Below are positions 8,194 through 42,180 of a stretch of 64,000 nt of DNA, in pieces. The notes below the pieces were generated by a model. The model did no database searches. It was not told the DNA's origin and saw only the letters and a program-made list of their open reading frames with translations. A program made the position numbers and the translations under genes. This stretch comes from Candidatus Cloacimonadales bacterium (GTDB lineage: Bacteria > Cloacimonadota > Cloacimonadia > Cloacimonadales > DAONDQ01). The stretch covers positions 2,112,001-2,176,000 of the forward strand of contig OY759316.1 of NCBI GenBank assembly GCA_963662275.1. The letters are read 5' to 3'. Each line of letters opens with the position of its first letter. Within the stretch, counting starts at the first letter, position 1.

Positions 8194-8207
8194 GAGTTAA
8201 GCAAATA

Positions 8208-8960: not shown

Positions 8961-9126
8961 CGAAATTCACCTGATTTTTAAGTTAGCGCAAGGAATAAAT
9001 TGACGTTTTTTTATCCTAAACAATTATATCTCGTTGACAATGAATTTCCACCCAATATTTGTGGTTTTACATGGAAATAGCGGTTATGAATAGTAAGTAT
9101 AGATCAAAAGATAAAAAACTGGAGGA

Positions 9127-23720: not shown

Positions 23721-25013
23721 ATGCGACGTTATTTAATCGTTCTTATCTTTCTTTTAATAAATATATCAGCTAGGGCAGCAGATATTTTTTTTAATCCTGT
23801 CGATACACGACCTGGAAATGGTCCAGTGATGAACAATCCGGAACGTGGTTGGTATTTAATTCAAAAAATCCAGTCTTCCTACTCGGATAGTCTCTGGGTT
23901 GATAATATAAAAAGATTATATTATTATCATCCTGAGCAGCCAAGTTTCATTGATAGTGTAGAAATCTTCCAATATGACCAGGTTTCTACGACATGGATCT
24001 TAAGAAATACCATTGTTGCTACATATGACCCTGTTTCTGAAAATATCTCCGAAATCATTTGGTATTCATTTTATGGTACTGATATTAGAGTACCTGGTCA
24101 GCGGATACTCTTAGAATACAATGACAACCATTATCTCTTAAATTGGGCTTTCCAGCATAAGGATACTCTAACAGGAAACTGGATTGTTGGACAGAGAATG
24201 CACTTTGTGTACGTAAATAACAATGTATCTGCTCTTGTAACTTGGTATGATGGAGTTCCAACTCCCTATGATCAGAAGATTTTTAATACTGATCTGCAAG
24301 GACGAATCATACAGGAAACTTGGCAGACTTCTTCCGATTCAACGAATTGGACAGATTATAAGCAAGTATTTAGAACATTTCATCCTTTGGATACATCGAC
24401 GGGAACCTCTTTCATGACTAGTTATGCTCAACTGGGATATGTGATAATTACCGATAGCCCTATGGATTTGGGTATGTGGAGTGAAGAACTGACAAAATCG
24501 TGGATTAATGATATTATGGATAATGAATCGAAAGCTACTTATGATTATGATATCTCAAATAAGCTGGTTAGCGAGCTTTATCAGAAATGGATTAATTTTT
24601 CATGGAATAATGAATCGAAATTTACTTATGATTATGATAATAACGGAAATCTAATTCATGAAATATACCAGCGTTGGAACACGATGAACTGGGATTACTC
24701 TAGTAGGGATACCAATACCTGGGAATATACAACAGCCAATGATGACCACACTACTCCAGCGATTAATGGATTATCCCTTTTATCCTATCCCAATCCCTTC
24801 CATTCTAATTTGGATATGAAGGTAAATGCAAAATCTAATCAACCTGTACAGATCGAAGTGTTCAATATCAAAGGACAATCAGTATATCAAACAAATGCCA
24901 TGCCTAATACTCAGATCATGATGGATGGAATGAAGTTCAGTTCCGGTATTTATTTTGTGAAAGCAATGCAGGGGACGGAAACCAGTGTACGGAAAGTCGT
25001 GAAGCTGAAATGA
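23721..25013 (+). CDS. Secreted beta-repeat protein with T9SS-like CTD, paralog 2
   Basis: Collinear with paralog 1 (ER.W, IDS, GRIIQE...S.DS.NW); near-identical CTD; SD aggagg. Confidence 0.7.
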   Translation: MRRYLIVLIFLLINISARAADIFFNPVDTRPGNGPVMNNPERGWYLIQKIQSSYSDSLWVDNIKRLYYYHPEQPSFIDSVEIFQYDQVSTTWILRNTIVATYDPVSENISEIIWYSFYGTDIRVPGQRILLEYNDNHYLLNWAFQHKDTLTGNWIVGQRMHFVYVNNNVSALVTWYDGVPTPYDQKIFNTDLQGRIIQETWQTSSDSTNWTDYKQVFRTFHPLDTSTGTSFMTSYAQLGYVIITDSPMDLGMWSEELTKSWINDIMDNESKATYDYDISNKLVSELYQKWINFSWNNESKFTYDYDNNGNLIHEIYQRWNTMNWDYSSRDTNTWEYTTANDDHTTPAINGLSLLSYPNPFHSNLDMKVNAKSNQPVQIEVFNIKGQSVYQTNAMPNTQIMMDGMKFSSGIYFVKAMQGTETSVRKVVKLK

Positions 25014-25119
25014 GAAGTAGGTAAACTGAATTGTCTTGACAATAATCCAATTAGTTAATTAATATTAGTATTAAATGTTTTCGTGATGATTCAAATAGAA
25101 ATCTGGTTATCTAGTTAAT

Positions 25120-27378
25120 ATGGGAGTAAGAATGACAAGTGAGCTTTCCAAAGAAATAATTCAAGAATTGGATTTGCAGTCTGAACTCAATCCCCTTGAT
25201 GTAATTCAGCGAATTAAAGTCTATCCTCTCAATGGTCTTTCACCCCATGCTATGAATCAGCTTAAGTATTTCGAGGCAAAATCGCATGTAACCATGCGAC
25301 ATTTCCAAGAAGCGGAACAAATTGCGATTGAGTGTTTAAGCTTGGCTATCCCTGAAAGAGACTATTTTATTTTAGTAAAATGCAATGTCATGCAAGGTTT
25401 ATGTTATCTGCACATGGGCATCGAATTATCGATAAGACCTTGTTTGGAGTTGGCAATAGAATTTGCCATCCAATCCGGTGATTTTGAACTTCTGATTTAT
25501 GCCAGTTCAAACTATCTCATTTATCTTAGGACTCGAACACAATTTAGTTCAGCATTAGAGGAGGAGAAACGAATCGTTGATCTTGTTAAACGCACACCGC
25601 CCTCTTTTACTTCAATGAATGCTTTAATGAATGTAGCAAAATTGTATCTCGACCTGAATAAATTAGATAAAACCATCAGGTTTCTTCGTCAGGCTTTAGC
25701 TTATGCCCAAGTACTGGAGATACCTACTTATCAACTTACGATCATTAATAATCTTGCTTCTGGATATATTAGAATTGAAGATTACCGAAAAGCAGAAGAA
25801 ATTCTTTTAAATGGACTACGAGTAGCCCAGGATCTTTCTCAAATTCAGCAGATAGCACATATGCTGTTCAATCTGGGAAACCTGATGAATCAGCAAAAAA
25901 GATATTCGGAATCAATTGAATACTACGATAAGTGTTATGCAAAAGTGACTGAATGTAATTTTATGTCTCCTATGTTTTTGATTGATCTGTATAATAATTA
26001 TTCGATGTGTTATTGGTACTTGAATAATCCTGAAGAATCGATAAAATATATTGATAAAGCCATTGAAATAGCAACTGAGAATGGTTTTGAAAATGACAAA
26101 ATCCAGATGGAAGAGAGCAAGACGAATATTATGATTGGTTTGGGTGAATACAAAGCCGCTAAAACCATTTTGAATAATTCCATCAAATATTACAAAAAGG
26201 GGAAACAATATACTCATCTTCTGAGGGCAAGCCGTTCCCTGGCATACCTATATTCAAAGCTAAATGATTATAAAAAAAGCTATGAGATTTGTCGAAAAGT
26301 TGATGAAATTACTGACGAATACATCAGCCAGATTCTAAATAAACAGACAGTTGATGATTCTGGCAATCTTAGCTTGGCAGATCTTAACTTTGATTCCATA
26401 TCATCCGCTTCACCTCTCCAGCACAAGATTGATCATTCACACGGTTTTATCGGTCGGAGTAAAGCGCATCAAAAGGTACTGAATGCTGCATTATTGGCAG
26501 CTCAGCATAATAATACCAATGTCCTGATTATGGGAGAATCCGGTACCGGAAAAGAAGTGATAGCTCAAATCATACACAAAAACAGTATTCGCAGGAACAA
26601 TCCATTTATCCCTGTAAATATTGGTGCTTTATCTGCGACTCTCCTCGAGAGTGAACTCTTCGGACACACCAAGGGAGCATTTACAGGGGCAGATACGCAA
26701 ACGAAGGGATATTTCCTACAGGCAGATAAAGGTTCCATATTCCTGGATGAAATAGCTGAAATGCCCTATGAACTGCAAAGCAAATTATTAAGAGTCATTG
26801 AAACCCGCAAGGTGTCTTCGGTGGGCAGCAGCAAAGAAACCACCTTTGATTGTCGCATTATATGTGCTACAAATCAGGATCTGCGGGAAAAGATGTTTGA
26901 ACAGAAATTTCGTCTCGATCTATTTCATAGGCTGAATACGATTGAAATCATTATACCACCGTTACGTGAAAGACGGGAAGATATTGAACCTATTATCCAG
27001 TATTATGTGGAAAACTATTCTTATGAGCTTAAGAAGCCAAAACCCTTTCTTGATCGCTCTTTCATCGATATGATGCTGCAATATTCCTTTCCTGGAAACG
27101 TTCGGGAACTGAAAAATATCATCGAACGCATGTTCATTTTGAGCAAAAACCTGCACTGGGATGACAAGCTTGTAAGCAGTATAAATCCTTTCAACTTTGG
27201 TATTGAGGAGAAAAGTCATCTTCAACAATCAGATGAAGAAGATATGATCTTGAAAGCTCTCATCAAAGCCAAAGGAAAACAAAAAGAAGCTGCAATCTTA
27301 CTTAATATGTCCGAAGCCACCCTCTATCGCAGAATTGTAAAATACAACTTACAAAAACATACCCGCAAAGGAAGTTGA
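25120..27378 (+). CDS. TPR-containing sigma54-dependent transcriptional activator (bEBP, Fis-type HTH)
   Basis: GESGTGKE, ESELFGH.KGAFTGA, FLDEI, RII.ATN, FRLDLFHRL, FPGNVREL and a C-terminal HTH 'AA.LL.MSEATLYRRI'; TPR-like N-terminal half. Confidence 0.9.
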   Translation: MGVRMTSELSKEIIQELDLQSELNPLDVIQRIKVYPLNGLSPHAMNQLKYFEAKSHVTMRHFQEAEQIAIECLSLAIPERDYFILVKCNVMQGLCYLHMGIELSIRPCLELAIEFAIQSGDFELLIYASSNYLIYLRTRTQFSSALEEEKRIVDLVKRTPPSFTSMNALMNVAKLYLDLNKLDKTIRFLRQALAYAQVLEIPTYQLTIINNLASGYIRIEDYRKAEEILLNGLRVAQDLSQIQQIAHMLFNLGNLMNQQKRYSESIEYYDKCYAKVTECNFMSPMFLIDLYNNYSMCYWYLNNPEESIKYIDKAIEIATENGFENDKIQMEESKTNIMIGLGEYKAAKTILNNSIKYYKKGKQYTHLLRASRSLAYLYSKLNDYKKSYEICRKVDEITDEYISQILNKQTVDDSGNLSLADLNFDSISSASPLQHKIDHSHGFIGRSKAHQKVLNAALLAAQHNNTNVLIMGESGTGKEVIAQIIHKNSIRRNNPFIPVNIGALSATLLESELFGHTKGAFTGADTQTKGYFLQADKGSIFLDEIAEMPYELQSKLLRVIETRKVSSVGSSKETTFDCRIICATNQDLREKMFEQKFRLDLFHRLNTIEIIIPPLRERREDIEPIIQYYVENYSYELKKPKPFLDRSFIDMMLQYSFPGNVRELKNIIERMFILSKNLHWDDKLVSSINPFNFGIEEKSHLQQSDEEDMILKALIKAKGKQKEAAILLNMSEATLYRRIVKYNLQKHTRKGS

Positions 27379-28395: not shown

Positions 28396-28440
28396 TTTAT
28401 CTCCTATTTTTCTTTTCTTCTCCCTCCCATTTCTTCTCGT

Positions 28441-28917
28441 TCGAACTTCGCACTTCGGACTTCGCACTTCGAGATGGGAGAGCTCGTTCTGTTCTTGCAC
28501 TGCTCTGAACTAGCACCTAACACCTAAAACCTAGAACCTTCTGCAAAAACACCTCTCATATATATATAGGGGGGAGCATTTTGCCTAAATCGAGGGAGCA
28601 TTTGAAAATAATTCGATTTTTATTGATTTTTCTTTCTTATTCCAATTCTTCATTCTTCATTTTAATTTTTAATTCTTAATTGAACTACTGTTTCATTTCT
28701 ATACGATTACGGTACTAATACGGTTTTTTTACCGTAATGATACCGTATTGCTACCGTATTGGTACCGTAATGCTCATATGTGTACTTTGATTGTAATGCA
28801 AGACGCCGTTCTTGCTGTCTGCTCTGTTCTGAACAATAAGCTACAAGCAATCAGCTATAAGCTTCTTCCTGGATTGTTTGCTCTGGACTGTAAGCTGTCC
28901 GCTGTACGCTGTAAGCT
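28441..28917. repeat. Cluster of different heptamer tandem repeats
   Basis: (ACTTCGC/G)n at 28441-28471, (ACCTAAC/A)n at 28510-28540, (TTTTAAT/TTCTTAA)n at 28641-28682, (AGCTATA-like)n at 28837-28863, (GCTGTAA-like)n at 28888-28917. Confidence 0.7.
28682..28780 (-). repeat. Family A 11-bp-periodic fold-back element, copy 2 (inverted relative to 1261-1358)
   Basis: Reverse complement reads catatgagcattacggtaccaatacggtagcaatacggtatcattacggtaaaaaaaccgtattagtaccgtaatc..., matching 1261 onward with few mismatches and one indel. Confidence 0.85.
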
Positions 28918-29364
28918 TCTGCAATGCGTGAAATAAGCGACAGGATCTTCCACTTTATCGTATTTTTCTTTTAAGAATTCGGATAAAACATCTACTGTTT
29001 TGGAAATACTCGGTTTCTCGATGGTGAAGAACGAATGTATTTCGAATCCCCGCAGGATTGGATTACCGTCTTTGATAACATATTTTGCTTTTCCGTTCAG
29101 TCTCAAGAGATCATAATATAATGATGGTGCTAGTTTATGTGCTGTTTCCATATCTGCAATATCACAAGTCACCATCTTTCCACTGAGATTCAGAATATGT
29201 GCTTTTGCTTCATTCTTACCGCCAATGAATTGCAGGTAGCCATATATCTCAGTAAAATCTGAAAAAGTACACTTATTTTCTTCAATCAAATCCACAATAT
29301 CGATATCAGAAGGTCTGGTATCTGTACCAGGGATGTCTATGTAACAATTGAAATCTTCGTTCAT
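28855..29364 (-). CDS. Hypothetical protein; the C-terminus reads into heptamer repeats, so it may be degraded
   Basis: Strong SD ggaggt and TTGAC at 29436-29440 (minus strand); the last ~20 codons are repeat-derived. Confidence 0.55.
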   Translation of the reverse strand: MNEDFNCYIDIPGTDTRPSDIDIVDLIEENKCTFSDFTEIYGYLQFIGGKNEAKAHILNLSGKMVTCDIADMETAHKLAPSLYYDLLRLNGKAKYVIKDGNPILRGFEIHSFFTIEKPSISKTVDVLSEFLKEKYDKVEDPVAYFTHCRSLQRTADSLQSRANNPGRSL

Positions 29365-29572
29365 CCCTACCTCCTTCTATGCGTTTTGTATCTTCATATT
29401 GTATAAAATAACAGAGAATCCGATTTAAGAAAATAGTCAATGCTTTTTAGGAGAAAGAAAGGAAGTTCTATTTTTTCTTGAAATTGATAGGGCATTTGTC
29501 TGAATGAAGATGAACTGAAAATGAGAAATAAAGAGATTGATTACAAAGGAAAATCAATTTCTAATATGAATC

Positions 29573-29578
29573 TTGACA
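29573..29578 (+). promoter_or_regulatory. Putative -35 box of the vsr-methyltransferase operon
   Basis: TTGACA 46 nt upstream of the vsr ATG; the same motif recurs before most transcription units in the window; no clear -10 box. Confidence 0.45.
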
Positions 29579-29618
29579 TATTATTACACATTCATTTGAT
29601 GATAAAGAAGGGGTTTGA

Positions 29619-30065
29619 ATGTCTGATTATGTAAGAGACAAAAGGTCGCCATGGCCCAAGAATGAAAATACATCAAAGGTGATGAGTGCCAATAAAGCAA
29701 AAAATACAAAACCTGAATTGAAATTACGACATGCTCTCTGGTCTAATGGGATAAAAGGATATCGAATTCATTATAAAAAAGTTCCTGGAAATCCTGATAT
29801 CTGTTTTGTTGGGAAAAGAATAGCTATATTTGTTAATGGATGCTTTTGGCATCATTGTCCTGAATGTCAGCATGATTACCCAAAAAATAATAGACAATTT
29901 TGGATTGATAAATTAAATAGAAATAAATTACGTGATATTAGAAAAATTGAAGAGCTCGAAATTATAGGTTGGAAAGCAATAGTAATTTGGGAATGTCAAA
30001 TTCAGTCCGATATAAATTTATGTGTCGATTTAATCAGATTAAATGTGGAGTTATCAATTGGATGA
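29619..30065 (+). CDS. vsr: Very short patch repair endonuclease
   Basis: MS.NK.KNTKPE..LR..LW..G..GYR, PG.PDI, IFVNGCFWH, FW..K...N..RD, WECQ motifs. Confidence 0.92.
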   Translation: MSDYVRDKRSPWPKNENTSKVMSANKAKNTKPELKLRHALWSNGIKGYRIHYKKVPGNPDICFVGKRIAIFVNGCFWHHCPECQHDYPKNNRQFWIDKLNRNKLRDIRKIEELEIIGWKAIVIWECQIQSDINLCVDLIRLNVELSIG

Positions 30066-31758
30066 ATCATTAACTGTCATTGATTTCTTTTGTGGTGCTG
30101 GTGGCTTTTCTGAAGGCTTCAGACAAAATGGATTTAAAATTATTCGCGGCATCGATAATTGGAAGCCAGCAATCGATACTTATAATTTTAATTTTGAATT
30201 AAATTGTTCCGTTAAAAATGTTCTTGATTTTGAAAAATCAATTGAAGAAATTGAACAAATTGAAAACTCCGATGTTATTCTTGGTAGTCCTCCTTGTGTC
30301 TCTTTCTCGAATTCGAATAAATCTGGTAAAGCTGATAAAGCTCTTGGTGTTAAGCTTGTAGAAGTATTTTTAAGAATTGTAGCAATAAAAAAATATATGA
30401 AAGATTCCATTCTCAAAGCTTGGTATATGGAAAATGTGCCTAATTCTCAAAAGCACTTGAAGGATAAATATTCATTCGTTGATCTTGGCTTGTCTGATTG
30501 GGCAGAAACAAATGGAATAGATGCTGAATCAATTGCAATAGATATTACTGATAGCAAATTTGTAGTTGATGCTGCAAATTATGGAACACCACAGCATAGA
30601 AAAAGACTAATCACTGGTGAGATTGTAAATCTTAAAAAGTTGCCCTTACCTTCATATACTCATGGGCAAGAATCAATTTTTGAAAAGGACTTTATTACTC
30701 TTTCTCTTATAAAAAATCATTTACCATGCCCAACTTGTCACAATCAAAATAGATTGGTTGTTGATCCGAACTATCCCAATTTAGAAATATCTTCAGAACT
30801 TCTTTCAGATCATTTTTACGATACTGGCATTTATGAATCAGAATGGAAAGATTCTTTATTTTTAAAACAAAATCATCCATATATGGGTAAAATGTCTTTT
30901 CCTGAGAATGAGACTAAACCAAGTAGGACAGTAACAGCCACAAATATTGCAGCTTCAAGAGAAGCTTTAATTTATCGATCAGAAATCTATCGAAAAGGAA
31001 ATGGGGAATATAGAAAACCCACAATAAGAGAAACTGGTTGTTTAATGGGATTCCCGATAACTTATCAGTTCATTGGATCTGAACATACTAAAGCCAGATT
31101 GGTTGGAAATGCCGTATGCCCTCCATTAAGTTCACACCTTGCCAAAAATCTATTAGAAATCCTTGAATTGCCAATCTTGGAAATACCTATTTTCACGAAT
31201 ATTGTAGTTCCAAATCCTACGAATCTTAATGTGGATACACTTAAATTATTTAATAATCCCCCTCAAAGGAAACCAGGTTCAAGGTTTAGAAGACATCCAT
31301 TGAAAGAAAATAACATAACTGTAAGTTTATCAAATTATCAGATTAAGGAATCAGAACCAAAGAGAAACGGATGGTATTGTTCAATCCAGAAGGGAACAGG
31401 AATAGATTTTATTACGATAGAAATTCCAAATGGCTATTGTTTTACCATAGAAGATAGAATTATGATACTTGAAAAGGGTGAGGAATTTTTAACAACTTAT
31501 TATCAACATATTGGAAATAAAATTGCTAAGTCTGAAACGCTACAAAAAATGTATGAAGAAAAAATGAACTTTAATGAGTATTTAGAACCGTCAACTTTAA
31601 TTGCTCTTCTTGGTGAGAAAATTGCAGAGTTTAAAATCGATAATAACAAAATATCGACCCTTAATTTTCCTTATATTGATAGACTTGAATACTTCACAGT
31701 TAGACAATTGTTTGCCTTATACGCGGTAAGCCATATTACTACTATAGCCAATAATTAG
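30043..31758 (+). CDS. DNA (cytosine-5)-methyltransferase with a ~200-aa C-terminal extension (start may be TTG 30058)
   Basis: Motif I FCGAGG, IV GSPPC..FS, VI ENV, VIII PQHRKR, IX RE...LMGFP, X VGNAV.P, followed by about 200 additional residues. Confidence 0.92.
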   Translation: MWSYQLDESLTVIDFFCGAGGFSEGFRQNGFKIIRGIDNWKPAIDTYNFNFELNCSVKNVLDFEKSIEEIEQIENSDVILGSPPCVSFSNSNKSGKADKALGVKLVEVFLRIVAIKKYMKDSILKAWYMENVPNSQKHLKDKYSFVDLGLSDWAETNGIDAESIAIDITDSKFVVDAANYGTPQHRKRLITGEIVNLKKLPLPSYTHGQESIFEKDFITLSLIKNHLPCPTCHNQNRLVVDPNYPNLEISSELLSDHFYDTGIYESEWKDSLFLKQNHPYMGKMSFPENETKPSRTVTATNIAASREALIYRSEIYRKGNGEYRKPTIRETGCLMGFPITYQFIGSEHTKARLVGNAVCPPLSSHLAKNLLEILELPILEIPIFTNIVVPNPTNLNVDTLKLFNNPPQRKPGSRFRRHPLKENNITVSLSNYQIKESEPKRNGWYCSIQKGTGIDFITIEIPNGYCFTIEDRIMILEKGEEFLTTYYQHIGNKIAKSETLQKMYEEKMNFNEYLEPSTLIALLGEKIAEFKIDNNKISTLNFPYIDRLEYFTVRQLFALYAVSHITTIANN

Positions 31759-31766
31759 GAGGAAAC

Positions 31767-33092
31767 ATGGAACAAAAGCATCGGGAAGAATATTTGAAAA
31801 AATTGTTGCTTGAAGGAACACCATATTCTGCTAAAGATATTTCGTATAAAGCAAGTACGAAAACGATGAAGGTATATGAAATTAACATAGATTATCTAGT
31901 ATATAATCCATACAATGGTAGAATTGCAAGTTTAGTTAAATCTTTTGAGCGTCAAAGAGGAAATCAGCTCAACCCAGAAAGTACTGAAGATATGCAGTTT
32001 ATAGAGAAATTTCTTTGGGAATCTAACTCAACTAGCAATGAAAAGACTCTCAAGGATTTGAAAGATAAACAACAACTTGAACCAGGAATTGTTACACTAG
32101 ACGGGGTAATAATCGATGGAAACAGAAGAGCGTTTCTATTAAAGAAGTTAGGGGTTAAGTTTTTTAAAGCAATTATATTGCCTGATGAATTGAATAGCGA
32201 ACCACAAGAAATAATGAAGCTTGAAACTACTTATCAGATGGGAGAAGATGCAAAAGTAGATTACAATGCGATTGAAAAATATCTGAAATGCAAAGATTTA
32301 ATAAATTTCTTCAAACCAAAAGAAATTGCCGATATGATGGGTGAGTCGGAATCACAAATTAAAGAGTATCTCGGAATTATGTCTCTGATGGAAGATTATT
32401 TAGAATCACTTGGGTGTGCTGGTATCTACACTGCTCTGGATAAAACTGAAGGTGCTTTTGTTGATATTTGCAAATATTTCAAAGCTTATAGTAAGAGTGT
32501 AACAGCAAAATCAGATTGGGAGTATGATGATTCAGATGTTAATGACTTAAAACTGATATATTTTGATTATATCACTTTTATTTATAACAAGTCCAAATCA
32601 AGAAATGATGATGAAGATACAATCCTGGGAGGTTCTAAAGATTATCGTTTTATTGGGCAACCAAATAAAAAGACAGGAATTTTCTGTAATGGAAAAGTAT
32701 GGGACAAATTCAGTACAGACCATTTTAGAGAGATTGATCCCATTCGTCAGAAATATACTGATGGTGAATATTCAATTGATTCATTAAGAGAAGCAAACCC
32801 AACTCAATCTCTAGAACAAATTATTAAGGGAAGGAATGAACAATGGGCAAAGGAAACGGGTAGTTTTCTTAAAAGGAACTTGGGTGAAGGTAAATATTCA
32901 TTAGAAAATAAAAACTTACAGAATCAGCCAGAGGAGTTATTGCAACGTGCACTTACAATATTGGAAAATATAGATCCTGAAAAGGAAGGCTTTGCTGCAA
33001 GGAAAAATGTTCATGAGATAGTCTCACAAATCAATAAAATAATGTGGATATTCAAGAAAAAATGCGAAAAATGGAAAGGAGAGGTCGTATGA
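31767..33092 (+). CDS. ParB/Srx-like N-terminal domain protein with a putative HTH
   Basis: 'YNPYNGRI' and 'Q.EPGIV..DG.IIDGNRR' (ParB box II-like GxRR); HTH-like 'KEIADMMGESESQIKEYL'; SD aggagg. Confidence 0.7.
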   Translation: MEQKHREEYLKKLLLEGTPYSAKDISYKASTKTMKVYEINIDYLVYNPYNGRIASLVKSFERQRGNQLNPESTEDMQFIEKFLWESNSTSNEKTLKDLKDKQQLEPGIVTLDGVIIDGNRRAFLLKKLGVKFFKAIILPDELNSEPQEIMKLETTYQMGEDAKVDYNAIEKYLKCKDLINFFKPKEIADMMGESESQIKEYLGIMSLMEDYLESLGCAGIYTALDKTEGAFVDICKYFKAYSKSVTAKSDWEYDDSDVNDLKLIYFDYITFIYNKSKSRNDDEDTILGGSKDYRFIGQPNKKTGIFCNGKVWDKFSTDHFREIDPIRQKYTDGEYSIDSLREANPTQSLEQIIKGRNEQWAKETGSFLKRNLGEGKYSLENKNLQNQPEELLQRALTILENIDPEKEGFAARKNVHEIVSQINKIMWIFKKKCEKWKGEVV

Positions 33093-35080
33093 CTTATCCT
33101 CAAATAGATGATCAAGTTACTTCAAACAGTTTCGTCATTCGAGATACTGACGGTTTCATCAACTCTAATTATCGAGCTTTTGATTATTTCATGAAAATTT
33201 TAAAAGCTAATTTTGTTGAAGATTTGATATATGTTAAATATACTGAAGAGAATAAGTATCAATTACTGGATCAGGTTACGAAAATTCTACGTAAGTACGG
33301 TATCGAGCTTTCAAGCTCAGATGAAATTCGAGAAATCAACCAGCAGTATTATGCTGAAAAAGAGAATTTCTTGCGTTTTAGTGAATCTGCTTTTAAAATT
33401 AGGAATAATATCGTTGATGCACAAGATTTGGATTACTTCACAAGTGCTTTAAAAAGAAAACTCACTTTCAGAACTTTATATGACCTACAATTGCTATCTT
33501 CTTATCATCTGGCTTTTTCTCAGAATTCATGTAATTTTTCAGTACCGGGGTCTGGTAAAACATCTATTGTTTTCGGTGCTTTTTCATATCTTTCAGGTCT
33601 ATCTGAAGAAAATTCAAAATATGTTAATAAGTTATTTGTTGTTGGTCCACTAAGCTCATTCGGACCATGGGAAGATGAATATGAGAATTGTTTTGGGAGA
33701 AAGCCATACTCAAGAAGATTATCAGGTGGTATATCAAAATCTGAAAGAGATGCCACACTGCTTTCGGTGGATAATTCGCAAAATACACCAGAAATGTTGT
33801 TAATATCTTATCCTGGGCTATGCTCTGATTACGATAACATAATTACCTATTTATCTAAACCTTCAAACAAAGTAATGATGGTCCTAGATGAAGCTCATCG
33901 AATAAAAAATACTGAAGAAGGTTTATGGGCGCAAACTGTTCTAAGTTTAGCAAAATATTGTAAATCTAGGGTTGTACTTACAGGAACTCCAGCACCAAAT
34001 GGATACGAAGATTTATATAATTTATACAAGTTTATTTGGCCACAAAGTAAAATTATCAATTATAGTCCAAGACAACTAAAAGATATGACCCAAAATCGGT
34101 TTGATTATCGAGTCAATGATCTAATTTCAAGCATTTCTCCCTTTTTTATTAGGATTAGGAAATCTGATTTGCATCTCCCCTCATTTATAAATCACAAACC
34201 AGATTTTATTGAAATGAATCCTGCCCAAAAAGAAATATATAACTTGATTGAAAATCGATATTTATTTGGTTATGTTGATGATCATCCAGATATTGATGTT
34301 TCAAAATCATTTTTCAAAGCTCGACTAGTTAGGTTAATGCAAGCCGCATCTAACCCAGTTTTATTGAAGTATTCTATAACAGATTATTATCTTGATGGAG
34401 AAAAAATAACTTCAGATGAATCTCTTGATAATGATATACTTAGAAAGATAGATGACTATTTAAAAACAAATGAATATCCTACAAAATACTGGATTATATT
34501 AAGTATGGTCCAAGATATTATTAAACAAAATCAAAAAGTAGTTATTTGGGGTCTGTATATCCAAAGCATAAAGGAACTACAGAAATTCCTTAATAACAAC
34601 GGTATCAATTCAGAATTACTTATCGGTGAAACCCCAGTTGAGGTAGATACTTCCCAAGATGAGATAAGAACACGTGAATGTATAATAAGAGACTTTAATA
34701 ATACAAAGATTGATTTGAAAGTCATTATTGCTAACCCAATGGCAGTTGCAGAATCTATATCAATCCATAAAGCTTGTCACAATGCTATTTATTTTGAAAG
34801 AAATTTTAACGCAGCTTATTTTATACAATCTAAGGACAGGATTCACAGAGTTGGGTTACCGGAAGGAGTTTCAACGAACTATTATTATTTAATTTCTCAG
34901 GATACAGTAGAAGAGACTATTCATAAAAGTCTATTGGTAAAAGAAGAAAGAATGTTGCAAATACTTGAATCCCAAGAAATACCCCTATTTACTGAAAATA
35001 TGAATTATGATATTGACATTAACTCTGATTTTAAACTTGTAATAAAAGACTATGTTAACAGAGTATCTGAAAACCACTGA
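33089..35080 (+). CDS. SNF2-family (SF2) helicase/translocase
   Basis: FSVPGSGKT, LDEAHRIKN, LTGTP.PN..EDL, 'LVRLMQAASNP.LL', 'AESISIH', 'QSKDRIHRVG'; ATGA overlap with the upstream stop. Confidence 0.9.
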   Translation: MTYPQIDDQVTSNSFVIRDTDGFINSNYRAFDYFMKILKANFVEDLIYVKYTEENKYQLLDQVTKILRKYGIELSSSDEIREINQQYYAEKENFLRFSESAFKIRNNIVDAQDLDYFTSALKRKLTFRTLYDLQLLSSYHLAFSQNSCNFSVPGSGKTSIVFGAFSYLSGLSEENSKYVNKLFVVGPLSSFGPWEDEYENCFGRKPYSRRLSGGISKSERDATLLSVDNSQNTPEMLLISYPGLCSDYDNIITYLSKPSNKVMMVLDEAHRIKNTEEGLWAQTVLSLAKYCKSRVVLTGTPAPNGYEDLYNLYKFIWPQSKIINYSPRQLKDMTQNRFDYRVNDLISSISPFFIRIRKSDLHLPSFINHKPDFIEMNPAQKEIYNLIENRYLFGYVDDHPDIDVSKSFFKARLVRLMQAASNPVLLKYSITDYYLDGEKITSDESLDNDILRKIDDYLKTNEYPTKYWIILSMVQDIIKQNQKVVIWGLYIQSIKELQKFLNNNGINSELLIGETPVEVDTSQDEIRTRECIIRDFNNTKIDLKVIIANPMAVAESISIHKACHNAIYFERNFNAAYFIQSKDRIHRVGLPEGVSTNYYYLISQDTVEETIHKSLLVKEERMLQILESQEIPLFTENMNYDIDINSDFKLVIKDYVNRVSENH

Positions 35081-36044
35081 TTTGATTCAGCTTGAGGATT
35101 TAGATTTTTTTCTTTTCAATGCTATATCAAGCAAAGTACAGAAGTTAGAGTCAATTAGGAAATATTGTTTAAATAGTAGATATACGATGGTTAGTACATT
35201 TAACTCAATAATTGTGTTTTTAATTTGGTTAAATCTTATTGATCTGATTGATGGAAAATATGTAAGAAGAAATTCCAATTTTGATAAGAAATACTCTAAA
35301 TTTGAATCCCTAGCGTATTTCAAAGATATTGATTTTTGTAATTTGATTATGAAGTATTTGAAAAAGGATCATGAATTGGAGTCCATTTTTAATGTAAGGA
35401 CTTTAAAACTGGATATTGTTAGCAATAGCTATTTTTTACATGATAATTTGATTCCTAATAGATTTAGGAGCTTACTAAATATCCTTATTCAAGTTGGTTT
35501 CTTTAGTAGAAAGCAGAGCCAATTGTATATTTCTGATAAATACAGGAAGTTAATCGAAAAAGATTTAATACCCTTTTTGATTAACAAACACCAGCATAAA
35601 CTCAAACTATCGCTAGATGATTTGAAAAAGAAGATTGATCTGAATAATTTGCATGGAGAAGCAGCTGAACATTTAGTATTGAATTATGAGCTACAACGAC
35701 TTGCCAATCATCCCAATATTCAGTTAGTAAAAATAATCTCAGAAGTTGATGTATGCGCTGGTTATGATATTGTTTCCTTTAATAACCTTAACTCATGCAT
35801 TCCAGACAGATACATAGAAGTTAAATCTTATAGTGATGAATGCACGTTTTACATTTCAAGAAATGAAATAGAAACAGCAAAAAAATACTTAACTAATTAT
35901 TACTTATACTTAGTTGATAGAAATCGAATTGATGAATTTGATTATCAACCTTTTATTATTCAAAACCCCTATTTAAACGTATTTTGCAATAAAAAATGGG
36001 ATAAATTTGTTGATAACTGGTTCATTAGACGTAATATAGATTAG
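35052..36044 (+). CDS. DUF3883 (NOV C-terminal) PD-(D/E)xK nuclease domain protein
   Basis: 'GEAAE..V..YE', 'AGYDIVSF', 'YIEVKS', 'FYISRNE', 'YYLYLV'; overlaps the helicase stop by 29 nt. Confidence 0.8.
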   Translation: MLTEYLKTTDLIQLEDLDFFLFNAISSKVQKLESIRKYCLNSRYTMVSTFNSIIVFLIWLNLIDLIDGKYVRRNSNFDKKYSKFESLAYFKDIDFCNLIMKYLKKDHELESIFNVRTLKLDIVSNSYFLHDNLIPNRFRSLLNILIQVGFFSRKQSQLYISDKYRKLIEKDLIPFLINKHQHKLKLSLDDLKKKIDLNNLHGEAAEHLVLNYELQRLANHPNIQLVKIISEVDVCAGYDIVSFNNLNSCIPDRYIEVKSYSDECTFYISRNEIETAKKYLTNYYLYLVDRNRIDEFDYQPFIIQNPYLNVFCNKKWDKFVDNWFIRRNID

Positions 36045-36625
36045 ACTCATTATTGAAATTAATTCTTATCTAATTATGAATGAAAACTTTTATCCCATCA
36101 CATCTTCCACCAATCCATTCGGATAGAGATAGCTCATAGACTCTTTTCGGAATATGGGATTGATCTTATGGATAATCCTGTGATGATTTGGACAAATGAC
36201 AAGCAGGTTATCTGAATCATTATTCAAAGAACGGGTATAATAATCGATATGATGAATTTCGGAAAGGGGTGTCCAGTATCTGTCAGTAAAATCATGACCG
36301 CAGATCTGGCATTTGTTATTATAGATTTCCTTGAGCGTATCTCCGATGGAGCGATTGTATTTCCTGATTTTGATATTGCTGGATATTTCGGAGTGAGAGA
36401 GCATAGTGTACGCTCCAACAGAGCCACGTCTTCGGAAAAATAGAGCCACCTAATTCGGAGATGAGAGCCACTCTTCTATTTTCAATAATTAATACAGGTA
36501 ATATACAAAAAAATAAGCTATAACTAATCTTTTTGCGACGGCTGCCGTGAAGTGAGGCCGTAGGCCGAGCGAAGCGGCAGCCGTCGCCGGGAAAGTTGTA
36601 GTACCATCCCAAGTATTAACTATCG

Positions 36626-37372
36626 TTATTCTTTCTTAATGCCATTGCGTTCTCTCATTGACACTTTACCATCGATAAAAATAGGATAGGAATCGTGTAT
36701 AATCCGGTCAAGGATGGCATCGGCAAGGGTTTCCTGACCAATCTTCTCATGCCATCCTCCGGTTCTGAACTGAGAACAGAAGATCGTTGATGAGTGCTGA
36801 TGCCTCGCTTCGATAATCTCCAAAAGATCTCTTGCCTCTTGTTCTCTGAGTGGTGTCAGCAGCCATTCATCAAGTATCAGCAGTTTGATCTGCTTGTATT
36901 GTTTTATGACTTTCTTAAAAATACCTTCACCTCTGGCAACTGCCAGGTCATCCAGCAATTCGGGAAGTCGTATATATCTGACAGGATAATAGTTCCGGCA
37001 GGCTGCTATCCCGAAAGCACAACCCAGCCAGGATTTCCCGTTTCCTGATGCTCCCATAATGATTATATTCCGATTTTCGCTGATGTAACTGCAGGTTGAT
37101 AAACGGATAATCTCAGATCGATCCAGCTTTCTGTCATCATGATATTCTACGTCTTCAATACTTGCCTGGCTGAACTTCAAGTTTGCCTTCTTAATTAGCC
37201 TCTGCAGTCTGTTATTTTTGCGTCTGGCCCATTCAGCATCTACGAGCAGACTGAAGCGTTCTTCGAAAAGCAAATCCTTAAATGCACCATCATGTAATTG
37301 CTGGCAGAAAGTATCAGCCATAGCACTCAAATGCATCTCGTGAAGCTTATTGACTGTTGATTGGCTGATCAT
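36626..37372 (-). CDS. istB: IS21 helper ATPase
   Basis: GASGNGKS, LLILDEW, STIFCSQ, ADAILDRIIH, SMR motifs; overlaps the istA stop. Confidence 0.95.
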   Translation of the reverse strand: MISQSTVNKLHEMHLSAMADTFCQQLHDGAFKDLLFEERFSLLVDAEWARRKNNRLQRLIKKANLKFSQASIEDVEYHDDRKLDRSEIIRLSTCSYISENRNIIIMGASGNGKSWLGCAFGIAACRNYYPVRYIRLPELLDDLAVARGEGIFKKVIKQYKQIKLLILDEWLLTPLREQEARDLLEIIEARHQHSSTIFCSQFRTGGWHEKIGQETLADAILDRIIHDSYPIFIDGKVSMRERNGIKKE

Positions 37373-38913
37373 TTATTTTTCCTCCCGTAGTAGTCTGCAC
37401 CTCTGGTAATACCAAAATCAGAAGCAGGATCATTCTTTGCAGTCTCTGCCGCATTATTGATCTTATCAAAACCCGTCTTGAGTATGGTTTGGATATTTTT
37501 ATAACCGGGATTGGGTGTATAAGATAATGCCCTTTGACATGCACTTTCGAGCCTCTGCACAGAATACCTGTCAGCTGATTTCAGAAGTGCCATACAGGAA
37601 CGGTATCCCTGCTGTTCAACACGATAGGATGCCAGAATAGACTTAATTACGATCATCGTATGTTCCCCTATTTCCTTTGCCCAGGAGATAAACCTCTCTG
37701 CATTCCATTCCTGATATTTCTGATGCTGTTCAGGCATATGTTCAGGGAGTGTCTGATACTGACCGGGATGACCAAATTTCCTGACATGGGAAGCGATTCT
37801 GTTGGAGTTATAGAAAACCTCGACAACTCTGCTTGTGATGCGTACATCCACATAGTATTTTATGTATTCATAAGGAACCGAATAGTACATCTTATCCACG
37901 CTTATATGATAATTGAACTGTACTGTTGCCTTTGACCAGGCAGCAAGCTCATATGGCGACAATGACAATGGAATAAGCATGGGCTGTTCTTCTGCCTGAA
38001 AGACACTTTCTCTGCTTCCTTCTTTCTTTTGAAAGGGCTTGGTATTGAACTCTCCCAGTTTTTCCCTGATTGACATATTGAGTTCATGAAGCGAAAAGAA
38101 TGTCTGGTTTCGCAAGGCAGCAATGATCCAGGTTGAGATGACTCCAACTGTGCCTTCTGCACTGGGCTTATCCTTTGGTCTTCTAACTCTGGCAGGTATT
38201 ACCGCAGTATCGTAATAAGCAGACATTTCTCCATAGGTTCTGTTGATAACGGGAGTATACCACGACACATGGTCAACTCCCGTCTTAAGATTATCAGGAA
38301 CAAGTATTTTAGTAACTCCATTAAAGTACTTGAAGCTATTTATATGAGCCTGAATCCAGCTTTCCATATTCATGGAAAGAAAGGCTTCCACATAGGAATA
38401 ACCACTGTACGGGAGGGTTGCTACAAAAACATAGGCTTTGATCGGTTCACCGGTAATGTTGTTTTTGATGGCGGCAGTCTGTCCAGCCCAGTCCACTTCC
38501 AGCTTTTCTCCTGGTTTGTGTTTTATTCGCATGGTTGCTTTTGTCTTTTGTGAGTAATCATGGTAATGTTTGCAAAATTGCGTATACTTGTAGGGAATAG
38601 CCTGATTATTCCTGCATCCCTCAGAGTATTCATGCCAGAGTAGCGACAGTGTTACACCACTCTTGGCAAGTTCCTTGTGTATGTGTTCATAATCAGGCAT
38701 CTTCTGCGGGTTTGACGATAAGTAAGCCGGAAAGAGCTGCTCTTCGATCATCTCATTTGTTAATGTATCAGGAAGCGGCCATTCAAGGCTCTGGTCTGTT
38801 GCCCTTTGAATGATCATCGACACGTTATTGCGGGAACAGGATAAACTCGCCGCTATGCCTCGTCTGCTTATTCCCTGGCTGTGTAAGCGAAGGATCTCTC
38901 GGTAATTGGTCAT
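37369..38913 (-). CDS. istA: IS21 DDE transposase
   Basis: N-terminal HTH, HKPGE.LEVDWAG, LVPDNLKTGV, RPKDK..AEG; SD ggaggt before ATG at 38913. Confidence 0.95.
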   Translation of the reverse strand: MTNYREILRLHSQGISRRGIAASLSCSRNNVSMIIQRATDQSLEWPLPDTLTNEMIEEQLFPAYLSSNPQKMPDYEHIHKELAKSGVTLSLLWHEYSEGCRNNQAIPYKYTQFCKHYHDYSQKTKATMRIKHKPGEKLEVDWAGQTAAIKNNITGEPIKAYVFVATLPYSGYSYVEAFLSMNMESWIQAHINSFKYFNGVTKILVPDNLKTGVDHVSWYTPVINRTYGEMSAYYDTAVIPARVRRPKDKPSAEGTVGVISTWIIAALRNQTFFSLHELNMSIREKLGEFNTKPFQKKEGSRESVFQAEEQPMLIPLSLSPYELAAWSKATVQFNYHISVDKMYYSVPYEYIKYYVDVRITSRVVEVFYNSNRIASHVRKFGHPGQYQTLPEHMPEQHQKYQEWNAERFISWAKEIGEHTMIVIKSILASYRVEQQGYRSCMALLKSADRYSVQRLESACQRALSYTPNPGYKNIQTILKTGFDKINNAAETAKNDPASDFGITRGADYYGRKNK

Positions 38914-39612
38914 TGCATTGACCTCCATGAATTGATTTACACTGATACAGTGCATTAATTCATGTTGGTTTTTTCTTTCAAAATAGCAAGGTGGCTCTAT
39001 TTTAGCGAAGACGTGGCTCTAAAACTCCGTACAAGTGGCTCTCATTTAGAATATTATTCAATTGCCCAGTTTATTGATAATTCCACTGTTTTGATCCGCC
39101 ATATAGTAGTTCAGGTATTCTTCGACTTGCGTTTCATTATACTGTTGGATGCTGTTTTGTTCTTCCGCAATATCAGAAGCGAAAATGCATTCTGCAATGA
39201 AGGTATCGGGTTGGCTGGTGAAATAGAAGACTACATATTCTTTCAAGTTTTCGGGGAGTACCAGGTATTTACCTTTTGTTCTATTTTGCAGGATATAAGC
39301 GTAAGAACTTTTGAATACATTCTGGAATTCGAAAGCCATCTTGCTTTTCCTTGAATAACGGAATTGCAGGATGTCCTTATGATCAGGATAATCTGTCTCA
39401 CTGAACCCGACATTGTTGAGGTTAACTTCATATTTTGTATGATCAAGAACAATATGAACTTTTTGACTAGAACCTTTCTCCCTGGTGCTTGGCAGTAACT
39501 CATAGATCATTTCACGAAAAGCGTTAGTTAATGTGATACCGTCAGTCAGTAAAGACCAATCCACTACTTTTTTGAAAGCATAGAGATTATTGCTGCTCAT
39601 ATACGTTCCTTT

Positions 39613-39975
39613 CTATTTTATCGATTTGGACGTATTTGCTTTTTTCAATTTCTTTTGAATAGATTTAACTTCTTCTTCCGTAAAATCAGAATTAACATCT
39701 TCAATGTCCAAATAGTTATATAACTGATAAAGTACAGCAACCACATGCTCGCATACATCTCCCCTATTATCCGGACAAGAGCATTTCCAGGATTTGATCT
39801 TTTCACCGGATAGGGTTATGCTGACGTTATACTTAGTTTTTCCACTGATAACGGCAGTCCACTTCCCTGGTCCTGTGATTGTGAGCTTCTGAACACGATT
39901 CGCATTACAGTAATACATGCCTTTATCCAAGATATCTACTGGTAACTCGGCTTCAAAGTTTTTGAGTGTTAGCAT
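39613..39975 (-). CDS. Short SWIM zinc-finger protein, 120 aa; truncated paralog of the upstream gene
   Basis: CSCP....VCEH SWIM motif; collinear with the N-terminus of 40161-41966 and the same RBS region (ggagttcttatgctaac). Confidence 0.75.
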   Translation of the reverse strand: MLTLKNFEAELPVDILDKGMYYCNANRVQKLTITGPGKWTAVISGKTKYNVSITLSGEKIKSWKCSCPDNRGDVCEHVVAVLYQLYNYLDIEDVNSDFTEEEVKSIQKKLKKANTSKSIK

Positions 39976-40010
39976 AAGAACTCCTTTTAGTAAGCGTACA
40001 GGGTACAAGG

Positions 40011-40163
40011 TCAGTAGGATCGGCATCCTACTCCACATAAGTTCAGTAGGATCGGCATCCTACTCCACATAAGTTCAGTAGGATCGGCATCCTACTCCAC
40101 ATAAGTTCAGCAGGATCGGCGTCCTACTCTACGAAGGTTCAGCAAGAACGGTGTCTTGCTTTA
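40011..40163. repeat. Tandem REP-like array, 32-bp unit x5, degenerating to the right
   Basis: tcagtaggatcggcatcctactccacataagt at 40011, 40043 and 40075 (identical), 40107 and 40139 (diverged); each unit carries a hairpin; no spacers. Confidence 0.9.
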
Positions 40164-41966
40164 CAGAAGATCAGGGAAAGAGCGTTTGAATATCTCTTTC
40201 ATTGCAGGTCGGTTGGAATGGGTGGTTAACAAGTATTTTAATGTGGATTGAACAACCTCTTTTCCGCCTTGTATTTTCAGCATTTTCTTTAAATAACGGG
40301 CAATCATTTCATAGGAATAACGGTCGGTAATTTTGCCCTGCTCAACCATTTTGTCTGCATAGATCGTAAGCATTTCAGCCGGGTATCTCTTCGTAAGATG
40401 TTTGGCATATTCATCAATAAATTGCAAAGATAATTTACTATGTTGAATCATACTTAATAAACGGTCGATGTAGCCTTCTGTAATGAAAATATCTGCAAGA
40501 AATGAAGCTCTGTATATCACATCATCTTTTGATTTGTTGAGGTGATAATCGATGAACTCTTCTGCCTTATCTTTCCAAAGATCAGCTGGATAGAGAGCTT
40601 TCATTTTGATATAGTAATCATGCTTACAAGCCTTATCCCAATATAATTCTTCGGCATATTTCTGTTGATCCGGTATGTTGTTTTCCAATTCAGCAATATT
40701 ATGAAGATGCCCCAGATAGGTTGAACCGATATGCCTGAATTCCTTGTTCTTGCCATTCATTATAGCTTCTCTGCACAGAATCTTTGCTTTCTCGAAGTTA
40801 CCTTCCGTTATACATTTTTCGATAAGCATCTGTCTGAAAGATTCGAATTGGAGATTGGACATGATAATGGCATTCGCTTCTTCAATACGTTTACTATTTT
40901 GAAAGTAATAATACTTCTTTAGCATCAGATTCTCAACCATATGCTGCCTGTTCTTAGAACTGCTGTTTTCCTTTATCTGATTATCCAAAAGAGAAAGAAA
41001 CAGCTTTTCCTGCTCTTGAGAGTGAATCATATCAGCCATGATATCAAGATAATAATCGGCATTATCGGTATTGTATAAATACGGTTTATGATATTCTTTC
41101 ATAATATAATCGAACATTTCGTTTTGAAATTTCGAATCAGCATTACTATGGATAAAGGCAACTGTGTTTACTATTTCATTCATTAATCCGGCAAGATAAT
41201 CTTCAGAATTTTCTGTGATTCTCTTAGCCTTTAGTATCTGTTCCGTTATGTTCTGACAAATAGCCCAAGCCTGCATTGTGTCCTCTTTTTCTGTTAATGC
41301 AATGGCTTTTTTGATGAGATCAGATAATTCATCATAGCATTCAGAGTTATTTTCGAAGGAATCGAAGTCGTCGTAGTCTTCGTAATCATATTCTTCGTAA
41401 TCTGAATAATCAGCAAATTTATTGATAATTTCAGAAACTATCTTCTTGTATTTTTTAAAAGGATCACCAGGTATTTTGTCTGAAAAGTAATGTGTAAAGT
41501 AAGTATGAGCTTCATCAACATCCTTAAAGATATCTTCACAAAACTTAATTAATTCAGGCATTGTGAGACTCGCTAGAATCAGTGCGGTTTGCTTATCCTT
41601 GGCATCTTTTTTAGGCTTTAGAGCTTTGGCTTTGCTAATTTCCTTAACAAGAAATTCAGTCTCTTCTTCAGTAAAGTCATCATCCTGATCAATAATTTCC
41701 AGATGATCATACAATTTGTATATTACAGCCACCACATGCTTGCAAATATCTCCCATATCATATGGGCAATTACAGTGCCAATCCGTGATGTTTTCTCCGT
41801 TCAGGGAGACTTGTACTTTGTATTTATTTGTACCATGTACAACAGCTTTCCATAAGCCGGGTTTTGATTCAGTCAGCATGTTGACACGCTTTTCACGATA
41901 GTAATCATTTCCACGATCTAAAATCGAATCTGCAATTTCTACTTCAAAGTTTTGAAAAGTTAGCAT
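40161..41966 (-). CDS. SWIM zinc-finger family protein with a helical C-terminal region
   Basis: 'ILDRG..YY', 'W.A.V.GT..Y.V', CNCPY....CKH; C-terminal 'RPAM.E'. Confidence 0.85.
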   Translation of the reverse strand: MLTFQNFEVEIADSILDRGNDYYREKRVNMLTESKPGLWKAVVHGTNKYKVQVSLNGENITDWHCNCPYDMGDICKHVVAVIYKLYDHLEIIDQDDDFTEEETEFLVKEISKAKALKPKKDAKDKQTALILASLTMPELIKFCEDIFKDVDEAHTYFTHYFSDKIPGDPFKKYKKIVSEIINKFADYSDYEEYDYEDYDDFDSFENNSECYDELSDLIKKAIALTEKEDTMQAWAICQNITEQILKAKRITENSEDYLAGLMNEIVNTVAFIHSNADSKFQNEMFDYIMKEYHKPYLYNTDNADYYLDIMADMIHSQEQEKLFLSLLDNQIKENSSSKNRQHMVENLMLKKYYYFQNSKRIEEANAIIMSNLQFESFRQMLIEKCITEGNFEKAKILCREAIMNGKNKEFRHIGSTYLGHLHNIAELENNIPDQQKYAEELYWDKACKHDYYIKMKALYPADLWKDKAEEFIDYHLNKSKDDVIYRASFLADIFITEGYIDRLLSMIQHSKLSLQFIDEYAKHLTKRYPAEMLTIYADKMVEQGKITDRYSYEMIARYLKKMLKIQGGKEVVQSTLKYLLTTHSNRPAMKEIFKRSFPDLL

Positions 41967-41980: not shown

Positions 41981-42180
41981 GAATTAAAAATTAAAAATTA
42001 AGAATTGGGAGTCAAGGGAATTACAGAAAATGATCGGAACGCCTCACCCCGTGAGGTGGCACAACGCACCCCGTGCGTTTCGAACTCGGTAAGGAATATT
42101 GGTGTTCGCGGAAATATGTTACCACGGCGGGGTTTAATATAATCGGGGATTCGCTCACCCATAGCTCACGCTATGGGCTA
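41981..42180. repeat. Heptamer repeat plus REP-like hairpins
   Basis: gaattaaaaattaaaaattaagaattgg at 41981-42008; cctcac/gtgagg and cgcac/gtgcg hairpins at ~42040-42080; cccatagc/gctatggg at 42158-42177. Confidence 0.6.

Follow-up and report, generated by a model that had tools for sequence, protein, structure and literature searches.

A candidate defence operon that joins a C5 methyltransferase, a ParB-like protein and an SNF2 ATPase to an exchangeable effector

The subject of this work is a cluster of five genes, a candidate defence operon, in a 64,000-nt stretch of DNA from a Candidatus Cloacimonadales bacterium (assembly GCA_963662275.1, contig OY759316.1, positions 2,112,001-2,176,000 of the forward strand). 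This whole stretch is called the window, and coordinates are window positions unless a locus in another genome is named. The five genes, all of which are intact and translationally coupled, encode in order a Vsr endonuclease, a C5 cytosine DNA methyltransferase, a ParB-like protein, an SNF2-family ATPase and an effector that carries a nuclease domain.

The five genes and their products

The first gene of the operon (29619-30065, + strand) encodes a 148-amino-acid Vsr very-short-patch repair endonuclease, an accessory to 5-methylcytosine (5mC) methylases, which is recognized by PF03852 (5e-23), by TIGR00632 (119.1 bits, with a cut-off of 97.85) and by the PADLOC Vsr model (4e-21). It overlaps by 23 nt the gene for the methyltransferase (30043-31758, + strand, 571 amino acids), which is followed after a gap of 8 nt by the gene for the ParB-like protein (31767-33092, + strand, 441 amino acids). 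A 4-nt ATGA overlap then leads into the gene for the SNF2 ATPase (33089-35080, + strand, 663 amino acids), and the effector gene (35052-36044, + strand, 330 amino acids) begins within a 29-nt overlap. (It should be noted that the ATGA overlap is counted from the ATG at 33089, with the reading frame itself open from a GTG at 33044; the ATG is taken as the start because alignments with the orthologues in five loci, L001, L033, L043, L068 and L078, begin at residue 1 of the protein so defined.) The G+C content lies at 0.275-0.331 across the seven 1-kb bins that cover 29001-36000; the four preceding bins have 0.348-0.412 and the three following ones 0.401-0.430. The initial annotation of this DNA had described five co-oriented, AT-rich genes with these overlaps and gaps and had given the five products these identities, with intact catalytic motifs; the open reading frame (ORF) coordinates, junctions and G+C bins agree with the first description, and the family matches, the motifs in the translations and the invariant alignment columns bear out the second.

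The methyltransferase consists of two parts. Its catalytic and target-recognition part, at about residues 1-375, matches PF00145 (1.8e-37 over residues 11-371), and the motifs FCGAGG, PPC, ENV, QHRKR and GNAV can be read in the translation. The remainder, at about residues 380-571 (31180-31755), is a family-specific C-terminal domain of about 190 amino acids that is conserved in 37 aligned orthologues and has a confidently predicted fold (predicted local distance difference test, pLDDT, 90.3). No solved fold was matched by this domain: the best Foldseek hit in the PDB has an E value of 0.36, the best VIA-align score is Z 4.6 (to an EVH1 domain), and a profile search of the PDB gave nothing convincing. 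The lack of a match to this predicted model is no proof of a new fold.

The ParB-like protein gave no match to Pfam, NCBIfam or PADLOC. A phmmer search against the PDB found the N-domain of a pNOB8-type ParB (5k5a, a ParB-domain nuclease; E 0.002), and an AlphaFold model built with 18 relatives has a pLDDT of 84.6 and a predicted template modelling score (pTM) of 0.80. The top Foldseek match of this model is Noc (7nfu; E 9.5e-5, TM 0.59 on the target, about 240 columns), with further matches to ParB-CDP (7bnk/6sdk), KorB (8qa8) and pNOB8 ParB (5k5d) and overall E values of 1e-4 to 1e-3. Because the model matches these proteins, both a ParB/Srx nucleotide-binding domain and a ParB-type helix-turn-helix (HTH) are taken to be present. 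All 18 aligned sequences keep the motif DGNRR unchanged, as they do a second block, LET.YQ.GED.K..Y..IEKYL, and weak domain matches occur among the 18 relatives, to ddrB-ParB in 15 and to HTH_ParB in 4. The C-terminal 200 or so residues form long helices without a match. Together, the predicted structure and the invariant DGNRR uphold the ParB-like fold that had been proposed for this third protein.

The SNF2 protein matches PF00176 (4e-20), ResIII (9e-8) and Helicase_C (5e-5), and an alignment of 56 orthologues shows conservation of its motifs GSGKT, DEAH, TGTP and QSKDRIHRVG. Its first 85 or so residues are poorly conserved; a nuclease domain of the type reported for AbiRiii was considered for this segment and set aside, since no conserved acidic motif is found there.

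The effector is also composed of two parts, a family-specific N-terminal domain (residues 1 to about 190) and a NOV_C/DUF3883 PD-(D/E)xK nuclease domain (about residues 200-330; PF13020, 6e-14). NOV_C is found in 34/34 aligned orthologues, and the nuclease residues D239, E256 and K258 are invariant in all 34. A lead from the ESM Atlas (0.82) suggested BpuJI_N, a Type IIS recognition domain, for the N-terminal domain; it was dropped, as no BpuJI_N match stands among the families listed for the 34 orthologues (E<=1) and a PDB profile search was empty.

Conserved linkage, exchangeable parts and mobility

A contig scan with one genome per species yielded 221 relatives of the ParB-like protein, a family that comprises 1705 clusters at E<=1e-3. 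The locus counts given here refer to the best 80 of these 221, which were searched by tblastn with the five window proteins and extra queries. An SNF2 homologue is present in 78/80 loci, both misses being contig ends, and in 76/80 its gene comes immediately after the ParB-like gene, in the same orientation. The fifth gene is of the NOV_C type in 66/80 (including one truncated copy and one that runs off its contig) and of a second type, with a TIR domain, in 6; it is lost to contig ends in 7/80 and replaced by another arrangement in 1/80. A C5 methyltransferase is found somewhere in 74/80 loci, the six others being short contigs. The hosts belong to the Bacteroidota, Bacillota, Chloroflexota, Nitrospirota, Omnitrophota, Saccharibacteria and Campylobacterota and include one archaeon (Methanolobus). 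Because the order recurs in dozens of genomes, it lies far beyond chance, and the linkage of the four core genes across phyla, which the initial annotation had named as a check on its proposal, is conserved in this sample. Vsr, which had been counted as a part of the system, does accompany the methylase here; with homologues in 32/80 loci, it is an optional accessory.

In two loci (L064:7995-10656 and L036:6384-9448) the ParB-like gene that was matched is a second paralogue; behind it come a gene for an alpha/beta hydrolase (PGAP1/DUF676-like) and a small unknown gene. This unit is divergent from a canonical Vsr-methyltransferase-ParB-SNF2-NOV_C operon; in L064 that operon is encoded on the opposite strand and includes a ParB-like gene of its own. 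Judged from gene content, the hydrolase arrangement may be another effector variant.

The six fifth genes that lack NOV_C all carry a TIR domain (PF13676, 6e-6 to 7e-16; ThsB match, 9.5e-46). They are found in L010, L013, L014, L017, L018 and L020 (for example, L010:11241-12293). The N-terminal 180 or so residues are common to the TIR and NOV_C types (hhalign 99.4%, E 2e-21, 181 columns). A constant adaptor with an exchangeable nuclease or NADase is the pattern of sensor-effector immune systems, which suggests that the role of the ParB-like/SNF2 pair is to switch the effector on and not merely to deliver a nuclease along DNA. It had been proposed at first that a ParB-like clamp or sensor and an SNF2 motor license the nuclease on unmethylated DNA; given that the fifth protein is an exchangeable effector, with TIR in six loci, that proposal gives way to a logic of sensor and effector.

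Exchange is also seen upstream of the constant pair. In 52/80 loci a long C5 methyltransferase of 535-607 amino acids lies directly upstream of the ParB-like gene, which it overlaps or abuts. In 19/80 loci, mostly from Bacillota, this position is taken by a protein of about 309 amino acids (for example, L055:7013-7942) that resembles BanI and DpnII over their C-terminal two thirds (PF24447, down to 1.6e-11); these BanI-type loci have a canonical C5 methyltransferase nearby, on either strand. Locus L080 combines a Sau3AI/MutH-like gene with a plain C5 methylase. The C-terminal domain of the long methyltransferase was compared with the BanI/DpnII-like protein as a possible hidden relative, and this was rejected (hhalign 1.2%; nothing by BLASTP). 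Both upstream elements, that domain and the BanI/DpnII-like protein, may serve to link site recognition to the constant module. Within the long-methyltransferase loci the target-recognition region (residues 201-320) has a mean column conservation of 0.33-0.82 and few gaps, and the alignment suggests a similar target throughout this class.

More distant relatives connect the operon with AbiR, a lactococcal phage-defence system known since 2000 from the L. lactis plasmid pKR223 (PMC13064643). According to that source, a 2026 review, AbiRi is sigma70-like, superimposed on an 820-amino-acid model; AbiRii is ParB-like, superimposed on PDB 5K5D; and AbiRiii is an SNF2 ATPase with an endonuclease-like N-domain. 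AbiR function is described there as requiring the LlaKR2I C5 methylase, and AbiR as toxic without it; an association of AbiR with restriction-modification (R-M) systems was already remarked in a 2013 survey, in the portion that mentions it (PMC3632139). Distant relatives of the window ParB-like protein were found on 60 plasmids, 46 of them from Enterococcus. In the Enterococcus faecalis plasmid pQZ076-2 (locus L081, positions 4390-10065 of the locus) an 864-amino-acid Sigma70_r4 protein, a 405-amino-acid ParB-like protein and a 620-amino-acid SNF2 protein follow one another, and no methylase gene lies beside them. Of 70 matching plasmids, 68 are from Enterococcus, and 61 carry the sigma-like gene in near-identical form (>=99% identity). 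The window SNF2 protein is 27% identical to the SNF2 protein of this trio over 618 residues (BLASTP E 4e-69), and the SNF2 proteins encoded behind ParB-like genes on Enterococcus and Lactococcus plasmids are 27-29% identical to it over about 615 amino acids (E 4e-69 and 3e-69). A profile of the ParB-like family matches the ParB-like protein of the trio (hhalign 99.6%). The Enterococcus trio matches the published AbiRi/ii/iii architecture. To name it AbiR by sequence or by database name was considered and rejected, there being no PADLOC AbiR match and no Lactococcus record in the plasmid search.

The Lactococcus lactis plasmid pIBB109_AgSa_3 (locus L083, positions 2026-10732 of the locus) has a different arrangement: Type III Mod-Res genes come first and are followed by genes for a ParB N-domain protein, an SNF2 helicase and a 201-amino-acid unknown protein, with overlapping starts. 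From this layout it follows that the ParB-like/SNF2 pair can attach to another type of R-M system.

The operon is a mobile accessory cassette that has spread horizontally. This is drawn from its sporadic distribution, from its AT-richness, from an IS21-family neighbour and from the missing counterpart in a genome of the same genus. The ParB-like gene is present in 1/61 genomes of the window's order, namely the window's own, and 24 ParB-like relatives lie on IMG/VR viral contigs. The same-genus genome, which is 66-74% identical, aligns with the window at 20006-21768 and at about 45.0-51.5 kb and has no counterpart for about 21.8-45 kb. Exact borders of an island were sought in this comparison and given up; it supports only a broad variable region at about 21.8-45 kb. 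The operon is chromosomal, with no conjugation or virion genes among the ORFs scanned at 24-42 kb, and no tRNA gene was found at 20-45 kb.

Upstream of the operon, a 254-nt intergenic leader (29365-29618, + strand), presumed to be the promoter region, has no + strand ORF of >=60 amino acids between the end of a divergent ORF (29364) and the vsr start. A scan for the sigma-70 consensus gave 35 sites where 38 were expected, and a promoter/terminator scan did not rise above shuffled expectation. Farther upstream, 23721-27378 holds host genes unrelated to the operon, which encode a protein with a type IX secretion system C-terminal sorting domain (Por_Secre_tail) and a TPR and sigma-54 activator. 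Downstream, an ORF for a 119-amino-acid HNH endonuclease (36090-36449, - strand; PF01844, 8e-6) is convergent with the end of the operon. The IS21-family element (36626-38955, - strand) lies 0.6 kb downstream of the operon and encodes an IstB-like ATPase (36626-37372; PF01695, 2e-57) and a 528-amino-acid transposase with a Mu-transposase C-domain (37369-38955). Beyond it are two neighbouring SWIM zinc-finger genes, both on the - strand (39613-40038, 141 amino acids; 40161-41966, 601 amino acids). A repeat of about 44 nt at about 42036-42079 has some 20 matches in the same-genus genome (84-100% identity), and repeats at about 28440-28499 and 28679-28782 have many matches (74-94% identity); these short repeats near 28.4-28.8 kb and 42 kb look like repetitive extragenic palindromic (REP) or miniature inverted-repeat transposable element (MITE) repeats.

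A proposed mechanism and its rivals

Taken together, these results argue that the five genes probably form a single defence operon, intact and acquired horizontally, that belongs to an unnamed AbiR-related family and would act like an ATP-dependent R-M system with a detachable effector. The best reading of the methylase is that of a self-marker, which guards the module of ParB-like protein, SNF2 ATPase and nuclease. We infer both the defence phenotype and all biochemical steps, which would run as follows. The methyltransferase would mark a host sequence with 5mC, and Vsr would repair the T:G mismatches that arise from 5mC deamination, limiting the mutational cost of the mark. The ParB-like protein and the SNF2 dsDNA translocase would form a constant sensor-motor pair that engages DNA without the mark. 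Reading of the site might fall to the methylase, with its C-terminal domain as the coupling, or to the HTH of the ParB-like protein; in sister loci, the BanI/DpnII-like protein would possibly have this task. Unmarked DNA would bring about nucleotide-dependent engagement and ATP-driven translocation, and with this engagement the fifth protein would become active, by way of its conserved N-terminal domain. In the window, the NOV_C nuclease would then nick or cut DNA; in some relatives, TIR would deplete NAD+ instead.

A more specific version of this proposal can be put forward tentatively. Here the system would be a hybrid form of immunity, in which a methylation-based self check is read by a ParB-type nucleotide-switch clamp that loads on unmarked DNA only and, together with an SNF2 motor, switches on an exchangeable effector (nuclease or TIR NADase). 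If true, this would wire a methylation check to the outputs of abortive infection, and it would also explain the 25-year-old AbiR phenotype.

Several observations weigh against the operon being an AbiR-related, R-M-like system. No Sigma70_r4 match was found in the five proteins or the flanking ORFs, and the position of AbiRi is held by the methyltransferase with its C-terminal domain. The link to AbiR is one of homology to loci of AbiR architecture, matched to AbiR by its published description and not by AbiR's own sequences, and none of the 120 relatives listed for the Enterococcus ParB-like protein bears the name AbiR. The moderate conservation of the target-recognition region contrasts with the fast changes of specificity seen in many R-M systems. 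Finally, the TIR variants show DNA cutting to be non-essential to the logic of the family, so 'restriction' may be the wrong word.

The main rival holds that two units travel together, a solitary Dcm-Vsr methylation module and a methylation-independent abortive infection (Abi) module of ParB-like protein, SNF2 ATPase and effector that is triggered by a phage protein or a DNA structure, with the methylase at most regulatory or antitoxin-like. In favour of this, Vsr is dispensable, the methylase partner varies between the fused long form and the separate canonical enzymes of the BanI-type loci, ParB-like/SNF2 pairs also occur behind Type III Mod-Res or a sigma-like protein without an adjacent methyltransferase, and TIR effectors are typical of Abi systems. 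However, a C5 methyltransferase accompanies nearly every locus, its absence coinciding with short contigs, and in the 52 long-methyltransferase loci it is an enzyme with a family-specific C-terminal domain whose gene overlaps or abuts the ParB-like gene. The reported toxicity of AbiR without its methylase (PMC13064643) also speaks against this rival. On balance, two independent units are unlikely.

A function in the establishment of mobile elements or in anti-restriction, in which the module would protect incoming element DNA rather than the host, is improbable. In the polyvalent proteins of phages and conjugative elements, as the pertinent portion of PMC5512222 describes them, DNA methylases repeatedly occur together with SWI2/SNF2 ATPases and ParB-superfamily domains, and the methylase-helicase dyad with a ParB-family domain seen here is a parallel to these; the relatives on plasmids and viral contigs and the weak ddrB-ParB matches point the same way. 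However, the last gene of the cassette always encodes a nuclease or TIR effector, and the window operon is chromosomal, with no conjugation or virion genes in the 24-42 kb scanned. Moreover, its products are separate proteins with no processing peptidase, and the AbiR phenotype is phage resistance.

Finally, a modification-dependent (Type IV-like) system that attacks foreign modified DNA, with a methylase unrelated to self-protection, is very improbable, for although ParB-fold domains occur in the modification-dependent GmrSD/DUF262 enzymes treated in part of PMC12839542, family scans of the five proteins found neither DUF262 nor SRA nor any other known reader of modified bases, and obligate linkage to a methylase is a signature of systems that modification protects and not of those that depend on it.

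The AbiR-related operon that we favour has a wider bearing. ParB-fold CTP switches act in chromosome segregation, nucleoid occlusion and plasmid gene silencing; to our knowledge, they have not been described as the core of an immune system. Here a ParB-like protein has an SNF2 motor and a methylase as its partners, in no fewer than 221 species genomes and over 1700 protein clusters, and AbiR, the sole relative that has been studied experimentally, has had no explanation of its mechanism since 2000. The swap of nuclease and TIR on a common adaptor domain offers a direct handle on how a methylation-based self/non-self check drives different outputs, and the compact five-gene operon is intact and suited to cloning.

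Comparison with known systems

The system had first been called a candidate undescribed one, and the lack of a full-system hit in searches such as PADLOC had been named as support for that. On this point, PADLOC (2023) gave no full-system match, and the matches obtained were generic (ZorD, DpdE, DrmD, DrmMII, the C-terminus of Tiamat TmtA, and PDC-S36). A literature search reached papers on Hma, BREX-related systems, Dnd, polyvalent proteins and AbiR, and none of these, supplements aside, describes the operon. The claim has to be qualified, however, by the homology of the ParB-like and SNF2 proteins to the AbiR-architecture trio, and the operon is most likely an unnamed relative of AbiR. What is new here is the TIR swap on a shared adaptor, the counts of the two upstream architectures, the fold check on the methyltransferase C-terminal domain, and the alignments to the plasmid loci of AbiR architecture.

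The operon shares with AbiR a ParB-like gene followed immediately by an SNF2 ATPase gene and an associated C5 methylase, which in the window is associated by linkage. The ParB-like protein also matches 5k5d/5k5a, the same PDB structure that the relevant passage on AbiRii employs. Unlike AbiR, the window has Vsr, a methyltransferase with a dedicated C-terminal domain and a separate NOV_C effector (TIR in some relatives), and the poorly conserved start of its SNF2 protein differs from the endonuclease-like N-domain given for AbiRiii in the published description.

A second resemblance is to Hma (HmaA-HmaB-HmaC), also called the Type-1 BREX-related system, in which, in the parts of the sources that deal with it, the nickase activity of the NOV_C-SNF2 protein HmaA is needed for defence against T4 (PMC11232893; PMC12839542). 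An SNF2 ATPase, a NOV_C/DUF3883 PD-(D/E)xK nuclease and a DNA methyltransferase are common to both. Hma differs in that its helicase and nuclease form one protein of about 1150 amino acids, its methylase (HmaB) is of the DUF1156 N6 type, its third gene encodes a DUF499 ATPase (HmaC), and it has no ParB-like protein. In the window, SNF2 and NOV_C are encoded by two separate, overlapping genes, and the methylase is of the PF00145 C5 type. The PADLOC HmaA model does not match the window SNF2 protein at E<=0.01, and there is no DUF499-like ATPase among the ORFs scanned at 23.7-42 kb. DISARM likewise combines a C5 methylase (DrmMII-like matches of 1e-20 to 1e-23) with an SNF2-like helicase (weak DrmD matches). 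Of the DISARM core, the PADLOC search of the window found no DrmB (DUF1998) and no DrmC (PLD), together with a marginal, generic match to DrmA (E 0.0032), and DISARM for its part has neither a ParB-like protein nor a NOV_C effector.

Among the R-M systems, classical Type II pairs the methylase with a stand-alone, sequence-specific endonuclease; no Type II restriction endonuclease is recognizable in the window, and sister loci carry the BanI/DpnII-like protein. The inferred logic would be that of Type III (Mod and Res), in which a methylase marks the site and a superfamily 2 (SF2) ATPase and nuclease act on unmarked DNA at the expense of nucleoside triphosphate (NTP) hydrolysis. Comparable mark-and-cut logic is found in the ATP-dependent Type II-like systems CglI and NgoAVII. 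Unlike these systems, the window has a C5 methyltransferase, an ATPase of the SNF2 clade, a nuclease that resides on a separate and exchangeable protein, and an added ParB-fold component; we know of no classical R-M type with such a component.

That component allies the operon with the CTP clamps ParB, Noc and KorB, with which it shares the fold of the nucleotide-binding N-domain, an HTH and a box of the GxxRR type (DGNRR). It differs from them in having no ParA partner or partition context and a different, long helical C-terminal half. The window protein, with its putative nucleotide binding, sits in an operon with a methylase, an SNF2 ATPase and an effector.

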